A stretch of 24,000 nt of DNA from an uncultured beta proteobacterium (lineage in GTDB: Bacteria > Pseudomonadota > Gammaproteobacteria > Burkholderiales > Burkholderiaceae_C), in NCBI GenBank assembly GCA_963810395.1, contig CAWENC010000002.1, forward strand, positions 790,004 through 814,003, written 5' to 3'. The notes under the pieces were generated by a model. The model did no database searches. It saw nothing but the letters and a program-made list of their open reading frames with translations, and was not told the origin of the DNA. The first letter of the stretch is position 1; the number at the start of each line of letters is the position of its first letter. The translations under genes and the position numbers were made by a program. Shown one piece after another: positions 5,566 to 13,078 of the stretch.

Positions 5566-8523
5566 TCAGCTCGAATGAAGTGACAAAACCTTGTCCAGTT
5601 GATCGCCATGCACAGGTTTTCCAAAATAATCCCCCTGAAACGTATGGCAACCGTTGCAGGTTAGCTGTGCCCGTTGTTCCCCGGTTTCCACTCCTTCAGC
5701 AATGACGTTCAGACCGAAGGCCTCGGCCATCGTGATGATGGCGTGCACTATGGCCTGATCGTTCTGATCCGTCACCAGATCGGACACAAATGACTGGTCG
5801 ATCTTCAACTGATCGAGAGGCAGTTTTTTCAGCAGCGACAGGGATGAAAAACCGGTGCCAAAATCATCCATCGCGAAGCCGACCCCGAGGGCCTTGATCT
5901 GATGCATTTTGTCAATCACGCGACTGACGTCATGGAGCATCAGACTCTCGGTCAGTTCAAGTTTGAGTCGGGTCGCATCGATGCCCGACTGTTCCAGAAT
6001 TCCCTTTACTTGCGCCACAAAATCGTCCTGTGAAAATTGCAGCGGACTGACATTGACCGCGACCCGCAAATGACGTTTGGCCGGATTGGCGGACCAAACC
6101 TTGATCTGGTCGCAGGCGCTGCGCATGACCCATTCGCCAATCGGCAGTATCAATTGGGTTTCTTCGGCCAATGGAATGAAGTTGGCCGGCAGGATGAGGC
6201 CCCGTTCAGGGTGCATCCAGCGCAACAGGGCTTCAACGCCGATGACGCCCAGCCCGTCTTTCACCTGTATCTGGTAGTGCAGCTGAAATTGCTGCTCGTT
6301 GATGGCCTTGCGCAACTCTTCTTCCAGAGTGATGCGCGTCTCCAGCACGGACTGCATGGTGACATCGTAAAACCGCACGGCATTGCGTCCCGCAGTCTTG
6401 GCTTGATACATGGCGATTTCGGCATGCTTGAGCAAATCGGTCATGCTTTCTTCGTGACCCTGGAACAGCGCGATTCCGATGCTGGGAGTCGAGTGGAATT
6501 CCTGGCGTGCCAGCAGATACGGTTTGCCCAAAGCGACGCGTATCGTTTGTGCCACCAGTTCGGCTTGAGTCGCGGCTTCTATCGGGTTGCCACTCGACGA
6601 TTCCATCAGCACCACAAAATTGTCACCCCCAAGATGCGACACCGTGTCGAAATCGGGTACGCAACATGGCAGGCGCTTGGCAACTTCGATCAGCATCAAG
6701 TCGCCCACTTCGTGGCCTTTGGTTTCATTGATGCTCTTGAAATTGTCCAGGTCAATGAAAATGACGGCACCGTAATGCCCGTGACGTGCGCTCGCGGCCA
6801 TCGATTGATGCAGCCGGTCCAATAGCAGACGACGATTGGGCAGTCGGGTCAGGGAGTCAAAAAAGGCCAGGCTGTGGATCTTTTCTTCATTCTTCTTTTG
6901 CTGCGTGATATCAGCAAAGTTTGCAACGTAGTTGATAACGTCGTTGGCCTGGTTGGTGACCGCAGTGATGGTCAGTTGCTCGGGATAGACCGACGCGTCT
7001 TTGCGCCGGTTCCAGATTTCCCCGTGCCAGAAACCATGTTGATTCAAGGCGGCCCACATCGCCTGGTAAAACCGGGCATCGTGTTTCCCCGATTTCAACA
7101 GGGCGGGTGTTTTGCCCACCGCCTCACCGGCGCTGTAACCGGTAATGCTGGTAAATGCCTGATTGACCTTGAGGATGATGCCTTGCGCGTTGGTCACCAG
7201 GATACCTTCCTGGGTTTCAAAAGCAATGGCGGCAACGCGCAGATCGCGGTCCAGCCGCTTGCGCTCCGAAATATCACGGCACGAGCCATAGACCTGCTGA
7301 TTCGGCAGCACCGAGGCATTCAATTCCATCGGGATCTTGCTGCCATCTTTGCGTAGCAGGTAAATTTCCCTGATTTGAGGCTCGCTGCTGCTGGCAATCG
7401 ATTTGGCGGCCTGGCGATAACGCGCGCGCCAGTCCGGCGGCACCAGATCGAATACCGTCATGGCATACAGTTCTTCGTGACTGTAGCCGAGCAGGGAAAC
7501 GGCATGGTCGTTGGCGTAACTGATTTGACCCTGCTGCGAGCAGATGAACACGGCGTCTGGTGCGCACCTCAGAATCATCTGCAGCGTGTTCTTGTTTTCG
7601 CGCAGGGACTCGTTCGTCAACTTGCGTTCGATGGCAAAGGCGATATGAAAAGCAATGGTGCTGGCCAGCCGGCTGTCGGTGGTTGAGAAGCGATGCGGCT
7701 GGTTGAAATACACCATGAATTTCCCCAGCAGCCGCCCCTGCTGTACCAGTGGAACAAAGCCAAATGCACGCAACCCTTCAGCTTTGGCCAGCGGTCGAAA
7801 GTGCGCCATGCCCGCGTCGAGCTCAATGTCATCGATAAAGATCGATTCCGGCTTCTCGGCGTCCCGGGTCCAGGGTGAATGCCCGTCGGCGCCCTGACGA
7901 TAGGCGTCCGAGAGCCCGCGCCAGGCCTTGAAGCGCATCACTGAATCGACATCGAACAGCAGGATCGAGACGCGGTCGGCTTTCAAAAGCTTGAGGATGG
8001 CATCCATGGCCGCGGCGTACACCTGTTCAAGTGAACTGGCGGTGCTGACGGTGTTGCTCAACAGGTAAAGCGCTTCGAGCTCGCTCAGGCGTCGAGTCTC
8101 CTGCAATTCCATTCGCTTGCGATCGGCGATGTCTTTGCCGACGACGTAAATCGCCTGTGGGTCCACCGAGGGGATGGCGATGCCGGTGGTCTCGATCCAG
8201 GTCTGGCTGCCGTTTTTGCAGACAAGTTTGAGCTCGACCGATTCGACGTTCGGTTCACCCTGCAGGATGCGCTGCACGCGTGACATGGCGGCAGCCCGAT
8301 AGTCCGGATGGATCACGTCCAGGATCGAGCTCCCGATGAACTCCCCGGCGTTGTCGCCGCCCAGCAATTTCACGCATTCCTGGTTGACGTAGCGGATGAC
8401 ACCCGCCACATGGATCAACATCGGAAGCGGCAGCAGTTCAGTCAACACCCGGTAGCGCTCGGCATTTTCAGCCGCCGACGCCTGTCGCTGGGTGGCCGGT
8501 GCGTCATACGTTGGGGTTTTCAT
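5566..8523 (-). CDS. c-di-GMP signalling protein, PAS-GAF-PAS-PAS-GGDEF(degenerate)-EAL
   Basis: 985 aa. PAS-like segments lie at about 25-135, 310-425 and 430-545, and a GAF-like segment at about 150-300. The GGDEF domain carries GGDNF at residues 632-636. The EAL domain has EALLRW, DDFGTGFSSL and AEGVET. Confidence 0.93.
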   Translation of the reverse strand: MKTPTYDAPATQRQASAAENAERYRVLTELLPLPMLIHVAGVIRYVNQECVKLLGGDNAGEFIGSSILDVIHPDYRAAAMSRVQRILQGEPNVESVELKLVCKNGSQTWIETTGIAIPSVDPQAIYVVGKDIADRKRMELQETRRLSELEALYLLSNTVSTASSLEQVYAAAMDAILKLLKADRVSILLFDVDSVMRFKAWRGLSDAYRQGADGHSPWTRDAEKPESIFIDDIELDAGMAHFRPLAKAEGLRAFGFVPLVQQGRLLGKFMVYFNQPHRFSTTDSRLASTIAFHIAFAIERKLTNESLRENKNTLQMILRCAPDAVFICSQQGQISYANDHAVSLLGYSHEELYAMTVFDLVPPDWRARYRQAAKSIASSSEPQIREIYLLRKDGSKIPMELNASVLPNQQVYGSCRDISERKRLDRDLRVAAIAFETQEGILVTNAQGIILKVNQAFTSITGYSAGEAVGKTPALLKSGKHDARFYQAMWAALNQHGFWHGEIWNRRKDASVYPEQLTITAVTNQANDVINYVANFADITQQKKNEEKIHSLAFFDSLTRLPNRRLLLDRLHQSMAASARHGHYGAVIFIDLDNFKSINETKGHEVGDLMLIEVAKRLPCCVPDFDTVSHLGGDNFVVLMESSSGNPIEAATQAELVAQTIRVALGKPYLLARQEFHSTPSIGIALFQGHEESMTDLLKHAEIAMYQAKTAGRNAVRFYDVTMQSVLETRITLEEELRKAINEQQFQLHYQIQVKDGLGVIGVEALLRWMHPERGLILPANFIPLAEETQLILPIGEWVMRSACDQIKVWSANPAKRHLRVAVNVSPLQFSQDDFVAQVKGILEQSGIDATRLKLELTESLMLHDVSRVIDKMHQIKALGVGFAMDDFGTGFSSLSLLKKLPLDQLKIDQSFVSDLVTDQNDQAIVHAIITMAEAFGLNVIAEGVETGEQRAQLTCNGCHTFQGDYFGKPVHGDQLDKVLSLHSS

Positions 8524-10957: not shown

Positions 10958-11031
10958 GGAGTTTCGGCCTGTGGCACCCGTGCAGTATGCGCAAGCAGCT
11001 ACTTAAAAGATAGCAAATACGATAACTCGTA

Positions 11032-11182
11032 CCAGGCGGGTGGCGTGGCTTGCGGACTCCGGCCCTCGCTCGCGGGCGGGCTGAACTGGTCCTCCGGTGT
11101 GACAGCGTCAAGACGACCCTTGGTGCGCCGATTCTGGGGTGACCGCGAATCGGGCCTGCGCTCGCAATCCGCACCACCCACC
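11032..11182 (-). ncRNA. candidate structured RNA / structured repeat element, left copy (family not identified)
   Basis: An 11-bp terminal helix pairs 11035-11045 with 11172-11182, with two G:U pairs only on the minus strand. A 7-bp hairpin (11128-11134/11147-11153) has a 12-nt loop. This copy is homologous to the inverted copy at 12108-12260, with compensatory changes. No plausible protein is encoded. Confidence 0.45.
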
Positions 11183-11350
11183 TTTAGTGACGGACTTGGT
11201 CTCGCCTTGGTCCCCCAAACTCATCGGCTTGACGTCATTGATGGTGAAGTTGCCAATTAGAGCTCTAGACTGCGACCGGTCGTTCGACTTGGCCGATTGA
11301 TGACATTCGAGATTGTTAACTCGCCTATATCAGCGGACTAATTCAATAGA

Positions 11351-11408
11351 ATTAAGCGCTTAACACGCGCTTAACACGCGCTTGACAATCGCTTATTAAG
11401 CGCTTAAT
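11351..11408. repeat. 11-bp-phased GCGCTTAA-type repeats with two perfect palindromes
   Basis: Copies start at 11356, 11367, 11378 (GCGCTTGA), 11389 (degenerate TCGCTTAT) and 11400. The palindromes are TTAAGCGCTTAA (11352-11363) and ATTAAGCGCTTAAT (11395-11408), with centres 44 bp apart. Confidence 0.85.
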
Positions 11409-11410
11409 AT
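11382..11410 (+). promoter_or_regulatory. sigma70-type promoter of the seqA-like gene, with an overlapping operator-like palindrome
   Basis: TTGACA (11382-11387), a 17-nt spacer, then TAATAT (11405-11410), about 46 nt upstream of the ATG at 11456. The 14-bp palindrome covers the spacer and the -10. Confidence 0.55.
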
Positions 11411-11455
11411 TCTTTCACGCGCTGCTTTAGCGTGGTTGAGAACGAAAGGGTGAAC

Positions 11456-11944
11456 ATGAAGACGATTGAAGTTGAAGACGATGTGTACCACTACATCGCA
11501 GCGCAAACGAAGGAAATAGGCGAACCGGCAACAAGCATTTTGCGGAGGTTGCTGAACGTTCCTGTTGGCGTGCCAGTCAGCAAGCCAATGCCAGCGCCCC
11601 AAGCACACGAACTGGCTTCGCTTCTTGCGCAGCCGATGTTCAGTAGTTCGACCACAGCCGTTGCAAGAATGCTGAGGGTATTTAAAGAAGTTCATGCTCA
11701 AAAGAAGCAGAACTTCGACAAGGTGCTCTCGATCCAAGGGCGCAACAGAGCGTACTTTGCGAAGAGCGAGCATGAAATTTTGAAGTCGGGTAAGAGCACT
11801 CAACCGCGTGAGATTGAAGGGACCGGCTTCTGGGTTATGACGAACTCCCCGACGCCGCAAAAGCAGCAAATGGTACGTGAAGTGCTTGAAGGGCTCGGTT
11901 ACAGCCAGGCGGCGGTGAATGCGGCAGTGGCGGTGATCCAGTAG
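11456..11944 (+). CDS. seqA: SeqA-like protein (homologue of the hemimethylated-GATC-binding replication sequestration factor)
   Basis: 162 aa from the ATG at 11456 (AAAGGG SD 5 nt upstream). The N-terminus MKTIEVEDDVYHYIAAQTKEIGEPATSILRRLL matches remembered E. coli SeqA [33 protein letters not shown]. In the C-terminal domain, GRNRAYFAKSEHEILKSGKSTQPREIEGTGFWVMTNSPTPQK aligns with [42 protein letters not shown]. G+C is lower than in the flanks. Confidence 0.8.
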   Translation: MKTIEVEDDVYHYIAAQTKEIGEPATSILRRLLNVPVGVPVSKPMPAPQAHELASLLAQPMFSSSTTAVARMLRVFKEVHAQKKQNFDKVLSIQGRNRAYFAKSEHEILKSGKSTQPREIEGTGFWVMTNSPTPQKQQMVREVLEGLGYSQAAVNAAVAVIQ

Positions 11945-12107
11945 CTGAAGTGAATGGAACGCGATCCCGTCTTTCGGGGCCTCAGTCTGGCAGCCTTGGC
12001 AGAAGGCGAGCTCGAATGACTCCTCGCTGCAAGCGCGTCTTTCACACCGCAAACATTCGCACCCATGAAGGACCCAATTTGAATTCGGCATAGCCGTCAC
12101 TTTGTTC

Positions 12108-12260
12108 GGCAGGTGGATTGGGTGTCCGGTCGTCGGCCCCATTCGCGGTTGCCACGGAGTGGGCTTGCCAGCAAAAATGTTAACGCAGTAGCGACCGCGA
12201 GCAAAGCAATCGGGCCCGCGAGCGTGGGCCAGAGAACGGATACCCGGTCCGCCTGCCTGG
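12108..12260 (+). ncRNA. candidate structured RNA / structured repeat element, right copy (inverted homologue of 11032-11182)
   Basis: A 10-bp terminal helix pairs 12108-12117 with 12248-12257 (one G:U, on the plus strand). A 7-bp hairpin (12138-12144/12157-12163, one G:U on plus) has a 12-nt loop. It shares conserved blocks with the left copy, with the same 64-nt spacing between the block B and block C equivalents. It ends about 40 nt before the rlmB ATG. Confidence 0.45.
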
Positions 12261-12298
12261 CCACCGGCAGTCGCTTGGCAAGCCGCGATAATCACGGC

Positions 12299-13078
12299 AT
12301 GTCTTCCCCCAAAGTCCTGTTCGGCTTTCATGCCGTCGGCGTGCGCCTCAAAACCGCGCCCCAATCCATCATCGAGATCTATTTCGAGCCGACGCGCCGC
12401 GATGCGCGCATGCGCCAGTTCCTGGAAAAAGCCAATGAGGCAGGCATCCGTCTGATCGAGGCCGATGGCATGCGGCTGGCCAAGCTCTGCGGCGGCCACG
12501 GGCACCAGGGCGTGGCGGCGCGGGTGCAGGAGCTGGCTCAGGTCAAGTCGCTGGACGAACTGCTGGAACAGCTCGAAGCCGCGCAAGCCGACAAACCGCC
12601 GACCGAGCGCGAAGCGCCGCTGATTCTGGTGCTCGATGGCGTGACCGACCCGCATAACCTGGGCGCCTGCCTGCGCGTGGCTGACGGCGCCGGTGTGCAT
12701 GCCGTGATTGCGCCCAAGGATCATGCGGCCGGCATCAACGCCACCGTGGCCAAGGTGGCCAGCGGCGCGGCTGAGACCGTGCCTTACTTCATGGTCACCA
12801 ATCTGGCGCGCACCCTGAATGAACTGAAGGAACGCGACATCTGGATCATCGGCACCAGCGACGTGGCGCCGAAGACAATCTACCAGGCGGACCTGAAAGG
12901 CCCGGTGGCATTGGTGCTTGGCGCGGAGGGCGAGGGCATGCGCCAGCTCACGGCCAAGACCTGCGACGAGCTGGTGAGCATTCCAATGCGCGGCGCGGTC
13001 GAGAGCCTGAATGTGTCGGTCGCCAGCGGTGTCTGTCTGTATGAGGCGCTGCGTCAGCGCTCAACCGGAGCGAGTTAG
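12299..13078 (+). CDS. rlmB: 23S rRNA (guanosine-2'-O-)-methyltransferase RlmB (SpoU/TrmH family)
   Basis: The N-terminus is [11 protein letters not shown], and the SpoU motifs are [33 protein letters not shown] and [14 protein letters not shown]. The start is set at ATG 12299. The upstream 62 codons of the track ORF are not RlmB-like and coincide with the structured element. Confidence 0.9.

Follow-up and report, generated by a model that had tools for sequence, protein, structure and literature searches.

Two inverted structured elements around a seqA-like gene in a Burkholderiales genome: probable arms of a dispersed intergenic hairpin-doublet repeat

In the genome of an uncultured beta proteobacterium of the order Burkholderiales, a seqA-like gene lying between an ABC-ATPase gene and rlmB is bracketed by two inverted, diverged copies of a structured noncoding element. 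The question that this locus raises is whether such a pair belongs to the gene that it encloses, to the genes that flank it, or to something that is not confined to the locus. The stretch analyzed here, referred to as the window, comprises 24,000 nucleotides (GenBank assembly GCA_963810395.1, contig CAWENC010000002.1, positions 790,004 to 814,003), and positions are counted from its first letter. An earlier note, made from the sequence alone, had interpreted the two elements as a functional RNA or single-stranded DNA (ssDNA) structure. The comparative analysis described below indicates that they probably represent the two arms, A and B, of a single hairpin doublet, one copy of a repeat that is dispersed through intergenic regions of Burkholderiales and is similar to the hairpin-forming doublets of repetitive extragenic palindromic (REP) sequences known as REPINs and to bacterial interspersed mosaic elements (BIMEs).

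Homology, fold and folding strand of the element

The earlier observation of two homologous, folded elements is confirmed and is stronger than had been stated. The inverted, diverged homology, previously aligned by hand, was recovered by a sensitive blastn search against the 24-kb window, in which the left copy (11,032-11,178) aligned with the reverse complement of 12,112-12,260 at 63% identity over 151 nt (E=2e-7), and it was extended to about 190 nt by MAFFT; no third copy was found in the window when each copy served as the query. The shared blocks A (11,032-11,040 and 12,252-12,260), B (11,061-11,077 and 12,214-12,230) and C (11,142-11,156 and 12,135-12,149) lie where they had been described, with 64 nt between B and C in both copies. 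Folding of the two copies together with RNAalifold yielded one extended, interrupted hairpin per copy, with about 34 stem pairs and with block B paired with block C. This fold reproduces the proposed 11-bp terminal helix, and seven pairs have changed on both sides between the copies. A 7-bp hairpin with a 12-nt loop, also part of the earlier description, can form in both window copies but lies outside the conserved fold, since its cells are paired in 38.9% of cases against 39.1% after shuffling across 130 family members.

The proposal that the folding strand points outward on both sides was likewise borne out by the folding energies and z-scores of the two copies, as it was by the strand statistics of the family. 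The left copy reaches -77.6 kcal/mol (z -3.4) on the minus strand versus -76.0 kcal/mol (z -1.7) on the plus strand, and the right copy -91.0 kcal/mol (z -6.6) on the plus strand versus -73.3 kcal/mol (z -3.2) on the minus strand. The element is noncoding, as had been supposed, and corresponds to no catalogued RNA: ARAGORN found no tRNA or tmRNA, and Rfam 15 gave no match at gathering score in the whole window or in 15 further loci carrying about 28 arms, while a permissive threshold (E<=10) returned only palindrome artefacts in the window and the other loci.

Both copies belong to a large family. A scan for the pattern ATTCGCGG-N50-80-CCGCGAGCGNGGGCC in one genome per species returned at least 120 stretches, almost all from Burkholderiales, with a match length sharply confined to 88-92 nt. 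The genera among the matches listed are Rhodoferax, Hydrogenophaga, Hylemonella, Rubrivivax, Rhizobacter, Piscinibacter, Ideonella and Pseudorhodoferax, and isolates bearing the repeat are Hydrogenophaga taeniospiralis NBRC 102512, H. aromaticivorans D2P1 and Rubrivivax albus ICH-3. Plasmids gave no match to the element, and phages gave none save one viral contig, a probable chance fit to the pattern in which the core has an atypical length of 80 nt. The family is apparently undescribed: a literature search turned up neither a paper with the core sequences nor an account of a repeat of this kind in the genera concerned.

An nhmmer profile built from the pattern matches identified 201 arms in 842 kb of family loci including the window, with a median score of 102 bits. 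The left arm of the window, whose folding strand is the minus strand, occupies 11,021-11,194 (profile match 11,025-11,194, 99.7 bits) and has an outer tail, CTGGTACGAGTT, that by eye fits the A-arm tail consensus in the arm alignment. The right arm, folding on the plus strand, occupies 12,097-12,278 with its outer tail (profile match 12,097-12,269, 105.8 bits); its right boundary was set by comparison with empty sites, and it ends about 20 nt before the rlmB ATG at 12,299. Arms characteristically occur in doublets, in that 81 of the 85 neighbouring arm pairs face outward (-,+) as in the window, with a median spacer of 34 nt. The usual distance between the arms of one doublet is 20-100 nt and the typical spacer 21-40 nt. 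Unsupervised clustering of the basal-helix columns separates two arm classes, A and B, to which the left and right arms of the window are respectively assigned, and all 44 doublets that could be typed are heterotypic, with one arm of each class. The element is a nested, mosaic palindrome, because 13 doublets of one metagenome-assembled genome (MAG) align over about 520 nt and have another inverted-repeat pair on their outer sides. A third inverted-repeat layer beyond the two arms, GGCCCATTGCTGnCGTTCGCnGCTGCGnGCA, is seen in many doublets (loci L011, L012, L023, L033, L057, L059, L067, L078 and L090; MAG MFD04651.bin.1.131), some of which carry fragments of further arms.

The structure statistics of the family refer to 130 distinct arms (alignment A3). 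Each module of about 170 nt is composed of a basal helix of about 22 bp, a near-invariant core, CGGGCGCAGGCCCCAUUCGCGGU ... CCCGCGAGCGUGGGCCGGAGAACG, in which internal loops part two short helices, and a variable apex of about 65 nt. In the basal helix the sequence is free and the pairing is kept, and in the apex only the motif GGUGUUGAY is conserved; no consensus fold was found for the apex, which shows a weak tendency to form a small hairpin around this motif. The conserved halves, GGCCCCATTCGCGG and CCGCGAGCGTGGGCC, are asymmetric partners, neither of which is itself palindromic. Paired cells amount to 96.2%, a value reached by none of 500 shuffles, compared with 77.2% after shuffling and 40-45% with slid partners, and the covariation score is 0.491, compared with 0.141 for shuffled alignments and 0.06-0.09 for slid partners. 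Two-sided change is observed in 19 of the 22 basal pairs. The claim that the fold has been kept while the sequence drifted is therefore upheld by the family as well as by the two window copies.

The same alignment reveals a pronounced strand asymmetry. Among the non-Watson-Crick cells on the outward strand, G:U outnumbers A:C by 349 to 27 (13:1), and in 122 of 130 arms the folding strand has the greater stability, with a mean of -91.0 versus -79.2 kcal/mol. A mutational strand bias does not explain the excess of G:U, because the arms of a doublet lie on opposite strands and doublets occur in both orientations. Judged from the alignment, the hairpin is probably selected in single-stranded form on one strand.

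The genomic setting was characterized with gene calls from a codon log-odds caller, two GC3-based callers having mis-called the ABC ATPase. Doublets favour the 3' side of genes, with 30 in tandem, 16 in convergent and 4 in divergent spacers against a background of 271, 85 and 78, and they typically lie about 70-90 nt after the upstream stop codon. The A and B arms are randomly oriented with respect to the genes beside them, and 54 of 116 units are located at contig ends. The earlier note had set its functional structure against an abundant repeat of the REP type, or of the miniature inverted-repeat transposable element (MITE) type, with random strand usage, and this is largely what was found: the element is dispersed, abundant and random in its orientation relative to genes. 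Typical spacers are GC-rich and contain no promoter-like sequence. A promoter scan found no outward promoter in the spacer modules of the window, and the sole promoter-like site within an arm (12,149-12,178) falls in the nonconserved apex.

The inserted block and its changing contents

The history of the doublet at this position was reconstructed from related loci. At the orthologous locus of a related MAG (L116), where amino-acid identity is 80% for selU, 79% for tesA, 92% for the ABC ATPase and 89% for rlmB, the same A(-)...B(+) doublet lies between the ABC-ATPase gene and rlmB and contains no seqA-like gene, enclosing instead 482 nt of other sequence without an open reading frame (ORF). The A arm of L116 has lost its apex and core via a deletion between direct CGCTCGC repeats (L116 positions 6944-6992), and the complementary basal stem remains. 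A metagenome scan with RlmB provided 80 orthologous loci with 80-95% identity, about 45 of which are arm-free, with the ABC ATPase at a distance of 20-130 nt upstream. In one of the 80, L137, the same arm pair encloses a GrpB-family gene that lies on the opposite strand. In positions 1-260 of L137 the ABC ATPase is seemingly disrupted, a 3' fragment (LNREQGTTLV...) being flanked by the A arm and by an additional B arm with which the contig begins.

Comparison of the window with empty sites bounds the inserted block at about 11,019/11,021 and 12,278, a length of 1.26 kb that is absent from most relatives' spacers. The native spacer to its left (10,958-11,020), including a AAGCAGCTAC...ATAGCA module at about 10,993-11,015, is present in the arm-free relatives L143, L147, L176 and L141, and the native spacer to its right (12,279-12,298), AAGCCGCGATAATCACGGC, stands directly before the rlmB ATG and is conserved in the twelve spacers displayed. 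A candidate target duplication, CGATAAC/CGATAAT, was rejected, since the bases that precede the right copy also belong to the native sequence of empty sites.

Among orthologous B arms (window, L116 and L137), 84 of 86 positions of the stem and core are identical in each comparison (98%), whereas the apex is 64-76% and the third codon positions of rlmB are 65-69% identical, giving a binomial P of about 1e-12 for stem and core against a neutral value of 0.67. A doublet also occupies the same position between rsmG and lysE in four Hydrogenophaga species. The site comparisons place the insertion of the doublet into the ABC-ATPase/rlmB spacer within a narrow lineage, and the substitution pattern shows its stems and cores to have been kept since then by purifying selection.

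The interior of the doublet can be divided into inner modules and inserted content. An A-side inner module (11,195-11,272, ...CATCGGCTTGACGTCATTGATGGTGAAGTTGCCAATTAGAGCTCTAGAC) is conserved in L116 and in L007, a non-orthologous doublet of the same arm subfamily with a 101-nt spacer, and a B-side inner module (12,046-12,096, CACCGCAAAC...CCCATGAAGGACCCAATTTGAATTCGGCATAGCCG) is common to L116 and L093 and partly to L007 and L137. The content between them (11,273-12,045), with a GC content of about 0.52 compared with 0.60 for the window, is absent from L007 and is replaced by different sequence in L116 and L137. L007 aligns to window positions 10,982-11,270 and 12,079-12,278, so that about 808 nt are specific to the window. 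At their outer ends the interiors of the window and L116 have 20-30 nt in common, and the two interiors may descend from one insertion. In the A-side inner module and its equivalents in L116 and L007, some third-position-like substitutions are seen in the frame reading ...HRLDVIDGEVAN, both strands fitting about equally well. The module could be the remnant of a gene end, by eye in the reading ...LDVIDGEVAN.

Long doublet interiors contain a different gene each and are mostly of lower GC content than their surroundings. Their cargo comprises the SeqA-like gene in the window, an AAA_33 kinase-like gene in L093, a GNAT acetyltransferase gene in L107, GrpB in L137, a DUF4160/DUF2442 pair between two plus-strand arms in L083, and ORFs without a Pfam match in L114 and L048. 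With the exception of L114, nearly all filled doublets fall into the arm subfamily of the window, in which about 6 of about 13 doublets hold at least 480 nt, while cargo was observed in 0 of about 70 high-GC-type doublets.

The seqA-like gene itself is part of a self-contained module (11,380-12,031, plus strand) with recurring boundaries. It consists of a TTGACA-17-TAATAT promoter-like site with part of a set of 11-bp repeats, a coding sequence at 11,456-11,944 (or from a GTG at 11,432) and an 87-nt 3' tail, and the encoded protein is a true SeqA-family member with both Pfam domains, SeqA_N and SeqA. The repeats, five 11-bp palindromes of the TTAAGCGCTTAA type (11,343-11,417, plus strand), were found by a repeat search, and a promoter scan located the promoter-like site that they overlap. 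They are probably the operator of the seqA-like gene, separate from the repeat element; weak matches to miRNA models at these positions were rejected as palindrome artefacts. The module recurs with the same ends at 74-91% DNA identity in L122-L124, L134 and L127-L129, and shorter matches occur in L125/L126, L130-L132 and L135. None of these homologues (L122-L135) has arms, and their contexts are unrelated: a PemK/TumE/HVO_A0114/dnstrm_HI1420 islet, a Sulfuriferula locus beside a PIN gene and an IS110-type fragment, and a thiS-DUF1631 locus. Some of these contexts are toxin-antitoxin or defence-like islets.

These distributions show the promoter-and-gene module to be a separate, later insertion between the arms. 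The elements had been thought to belong with the seqA-like gene that they bracket, but L007, L116, L137 and the arm-free modules indicate that the two arms form one pre-existing unit in which the gene landed. The only public contig encoding an identical SeqA-like protein (L001; Logan contig ERR12037365_3507472, 1,284 nt) agrees with the window in the parts compared by eye and stops within the right arm, an assembly break at the repeat.

Several further observations concern the spacer itself. It is a hot spot in this clade, with small arm-free islets in other relatives, namely DUF1330 with a 126-aa ORF (L167/L168), a thioredoxin-like ORF (L186), low-GC ORFs (L203, L207) and multigene islets of about 3 kb (L169, L180), and these resemble the minimal mobile elements of Neisseria. 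A low-GC module, AAGCAGCTAy-N8-10-ATAGC, is present at window positions 10,993-11,015, in both outer flanks of L007, in the spacers of L034 and L092 and in the arm-free L143, L147, L176 and L141, and may be a protein-binding site or a preferred insertion neighbourhood. The motif CGATAAT (12,285-12,291) occurs in 8 of the 12 rlmB upstream spacers displayed, the others having GATAAT or CATAAT, about 5-12 nt before the ATG and with no Shine-Dalgarno sequence obvious by eye, and could be the -10 box of a leaderless or near-leaderless mRNA.

Weighing the explanations

If the elements are arms of a REPIN/BIME-like doublet repeat, selection would act on the hairpin of the outward-reading strand in its single-stranded state, whether RNA or ssDNA. 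With the sense strands directed outward, the stable hairpin is present on any transcript or lagging-strand template that exits the space between the arms. A trans-acting protein may then recognise the invariant internal loops. Doublets would be inherited vertically and, most likely, copied only rarely by a single-strand-specific enzyme encoded elsewhere, as is the case for REP, REPIN and BIME sequences. In cis, a hairpin at the 3' end of transcripts may block their read-out or decay.

A number of observations weigh against this explanation. The invariance of the core arises partly by construction, as loci were found with the exact core pattern; the basal-helix statistics are unaffected by that selection, and L137, found through rlmB rather than through the core pattern, carries the same core. 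A whole doublet on one strand prefers a giant inter-arm hairpin over the intra-arm folds, and the intra-arm fold therefore needs an arm to be single-stranded alone or to fold while being made; a U-tract is also absent from the arms. All-against-all blastp clustering of the ORFs up to 1.5 kb from arms detected no transposase or integrase that recurs there, the largest clusters being spurious GC-rich ORFs or orthologous housekeeping genes. A tblastn search for homologues of the REP-associated tyrosine transposase (RAYT) with E. coli TnpA-REP, its sequence verified against 4ER8, covered the 842 kb of flanking loci and gave only chance matches inside acyl-CoA synthetase/dehydrogenase genes. At the one locus where filled (window, L116, L137) and empty (L143, L147, L176, L141) sites were compared, no convincing target-site duplication was seen. 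Finally, arms are sparse in the window's own clade, being present in only L137 (95% identity) among the 80 rlmB loci.

Several of the features that support the repeat would equally suit genes for a new class of structured noncoding RNA of about 170 nt, with two paralogues transcribed outward and acting in trans or as protein partners: strong covariation, the 13:1 excess of G:U over A:C on one strand, purifying selection on the stem and core of orthologues, invariant internal loops together with the GGUGUUGAY apex motif, and one-locus conservation across four Hydrogenophaga species. Such genes are nevertheless unlikely, given that typical 21-40-nt GC-rich spacers carry no promoter-like sequence, that many copies exist per genome and break assemblies, that their orientation relative to neighbouring genes is random and their structure a mosaic with further repeat modules, and that the apex has no consensus fold and no Rfam family matches. 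A locus-specific cis-regulatory role, with the B arm as an rlmB leader and the A arm as an element of the ABC-ATPase 3' untranslated region (UTR), can hardly be credited. The B arm does stand in sense about 20-30 nt before the rlmB ATG, a position kept in the window, L116 and L137, but in about 45 relatives these two genes are separated by an arm-free spacer of 20-130 nt, and elsewhere the element lies beside unrelated genes in either orientation; the dedicated leader and 3'-UTR roles suggested in the earlier note are accordingly improbable. Its further speculation about a CsrA/Rsm sponge finds no support, as each arm has one conserved GGA, within a GGAGAAC that sits in an internal loop, and the other GGA motifs of the window are at variable positions.

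Two further explanations start from the cargo. The two copies could be terminal inverted repeats of a composite transposon or mobile insertion cassette with the seqA-like gene as passenger, an idea that draws on the inverted arms around a single lower-GC gene, on the absence of the whole 1.26-kb block from most relatives' spacers and on several other doublets of the same subfamily that enclose one foreign gene each. It is disfavoured and highly improbable: the same arms at the same locus hold GrpB in L137 or 480 nt without an ORF in L116, the seqA module recurs with the same ends in several arm-free contexts, most doublets have only 21-100 nt between their arms, and neither a target duplication nor a transposase near the arms was found. 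Alternatively, the doublet could be a cassette-docking site at which a recombination system takes in or swaps single-gene cassettes by means of the two outward-facing folded hairpins, much as integrons do with attC. In favour of such a site, three close relatives differ in what the same arms enclose at one locus, about 6 of about 13 window-type doublets hold at least 480 nt, the cargo (GNAT, GrpB, the DUF4160/DUF2442 pair, small ORFs) resembles the contents of integron cassettes, and the hairpins are strand-specific and have conserved unpaired bases. This reading remains very unlikely, however, since conserved R''/R' (GTTRRRY) boxes are not visible in the alignment, the orientation of the arms is inverted instead of direct, no recurrent integrase lies near them, variable islets also occur in arm-free ABC-ATPase/rlmB spacers, which makes the locus itself a hot spot, the cargo ends shared by the window and L116 perhaps reflect one insertion, and none of about 70 high-GC-type doublets is filled. 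Stated for the heterotypic doublet, as the place where an unrecognised cassette system docks or recombines, with outward-facing, strand-specific hairpins whose invariant internal loops accompany binding by a trans-acting protein, and in which SeqA, GrpB, GNAT, AAA_33 kinase-like and DUF4160/DUF2442 cassettes are swapped, the proposal is quite unlikely; if true, it would amount to attC-like logic built from unrelated parts.

The explanation preferred here, one copy of a dispersed doublet repeat, has practical and conceptual implications. For annotation, an apparent locus-specific pair of structured RNAs becomes one copy of a repeat, which moreover breaks metagenome assemblies, as the 54 of 116 units at contig ends illustrate. 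It is also a bacterial dispersed repeat with RNA-like evolution (19 of 22 basal pairs covarying, a 13:1 G:U bias, and 98% identity in stem and core versus about 67% at silent sites), and this, together with the obligate pairing of two arm classes, argues for a specific single-strand-binding partner and a host- or element-level function. The single-gene cargo in one subfamily and the three contents at one locus offer a concrete case in which to study the entry of small foreign genes into compact genomes. The SeqA-like protein, in turn, is a full SeqA homologue on a mobile module in Burkholderiales.

Comparison with known repeat and cassette systems

The family is outside REP, MITE and attC, departing from each in several defining features. 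BIMEs of E. coli are mosaics of REP sequences. Like REPINs and BIMEs, the present repeat is extragenic and occurs in many copies per genome; its inverted units form long single-strand hairpins with conserved flanks and a less conserved middle; compensatory change keeps the hairpin; persistence at orthologous sites is mostly vertical; and mosaics with further modules occur without target duplication. Its copy number and 3'-biased extragenic position (at least 120 stretches, with at least 13 doublets in one MAG) are likewise as expected of REP sequences and REPINs.

The differences from these systems concern the unit itself. REPINs are REP doublets that form hairpins and are associated with RAYT transposases (PMC3116915, PMC3337134). 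REPs measure 20-40 nt and two of them make up a REPIN, whereas the unit hairpin here is about 170 nt long, with a 22-bp covarying basal helix and invariant internal loops, and in place of a short (20-40 nt) palindromic unit it has asymmetric halves. The doublets are always heterotypic (A+B), unlike REPINs, and show a 13:1 strand asymmetry; nor was a RAYT found in the 842 kb of flanking sequence. The REP palindrome bears a conserved GTAG or CGTC tag at one end (PMC3733652). No such tag is conserved by eye at the varying, covarying termini of the 130 arms, where no explicit search was made.

A MITE was rejected as a model because the outermost bases of the element vary and the conserved part is internal, because no transposase-bearing version exists among about 88 doublets and no neighbouring ORF recurs, and because there is no target-site duplication at the one locus compared. 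The ERIC/IRU sequences of enterobacteria and the Correia/NEMIS sequences of Neisseria are long palindromic MITE-like repeats. The present element shares with ERIC and Correia the form of imperfect intergenic palindromes of 100-170 nt in either orientation, and like them it would be co-transcribed with its neighbours and able to fold as a long RNA hairpin. Correia, however, has terminal inverted repeats, a TA duplication and an IHF site, and ERIC copies are conserved in sequence along their whole length, whereas the present family has variable, covarying termini, an internal conserved part and arms in obligate pairs.

With the attC sites of integrons and of clusters of attC sites lacking integron integrases (CALIN), the element has in common a structure conserved over sequence, a strand-specific single-strand fold with conserved unpaired bases, and adjoining single-gene cargo that is often of lower GC content. 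It differs from attC in that its arms are 170 nt long, compared with 57-141 nt, in that the sites around the cargo are inverted, in the failure to find an integrase and in that most doublets are empty. An integron was rejected accordingly, with no GTTRRRY or RYYYAAC conserved by eye in the alignment, 81 of 85 neighbouring arm pairs inverted, no recurrent integrase near the arms and at most one gene or gene pair between two arms. A mobile insertion cassette was rejected on the ground that passenger and ends do not form one unit, the seqA module being arm-free in L122-L135 and the same arms having other contents.

For the minimal mobile elements of Neisseria, homology of the flanking genes is sufficient, a difference from the present family, and the pdif modules of Acinetobacter plasmids depend on 28-bp Xer sites, nothing similar to which is seen by eye in the arms or inner modules. 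With both systems the window shares the presence of alternative single-gene cassettes at one position between conserved flanks, and the sites that bound pdif modules are inverted, as are the arms around the seqA-like gene.

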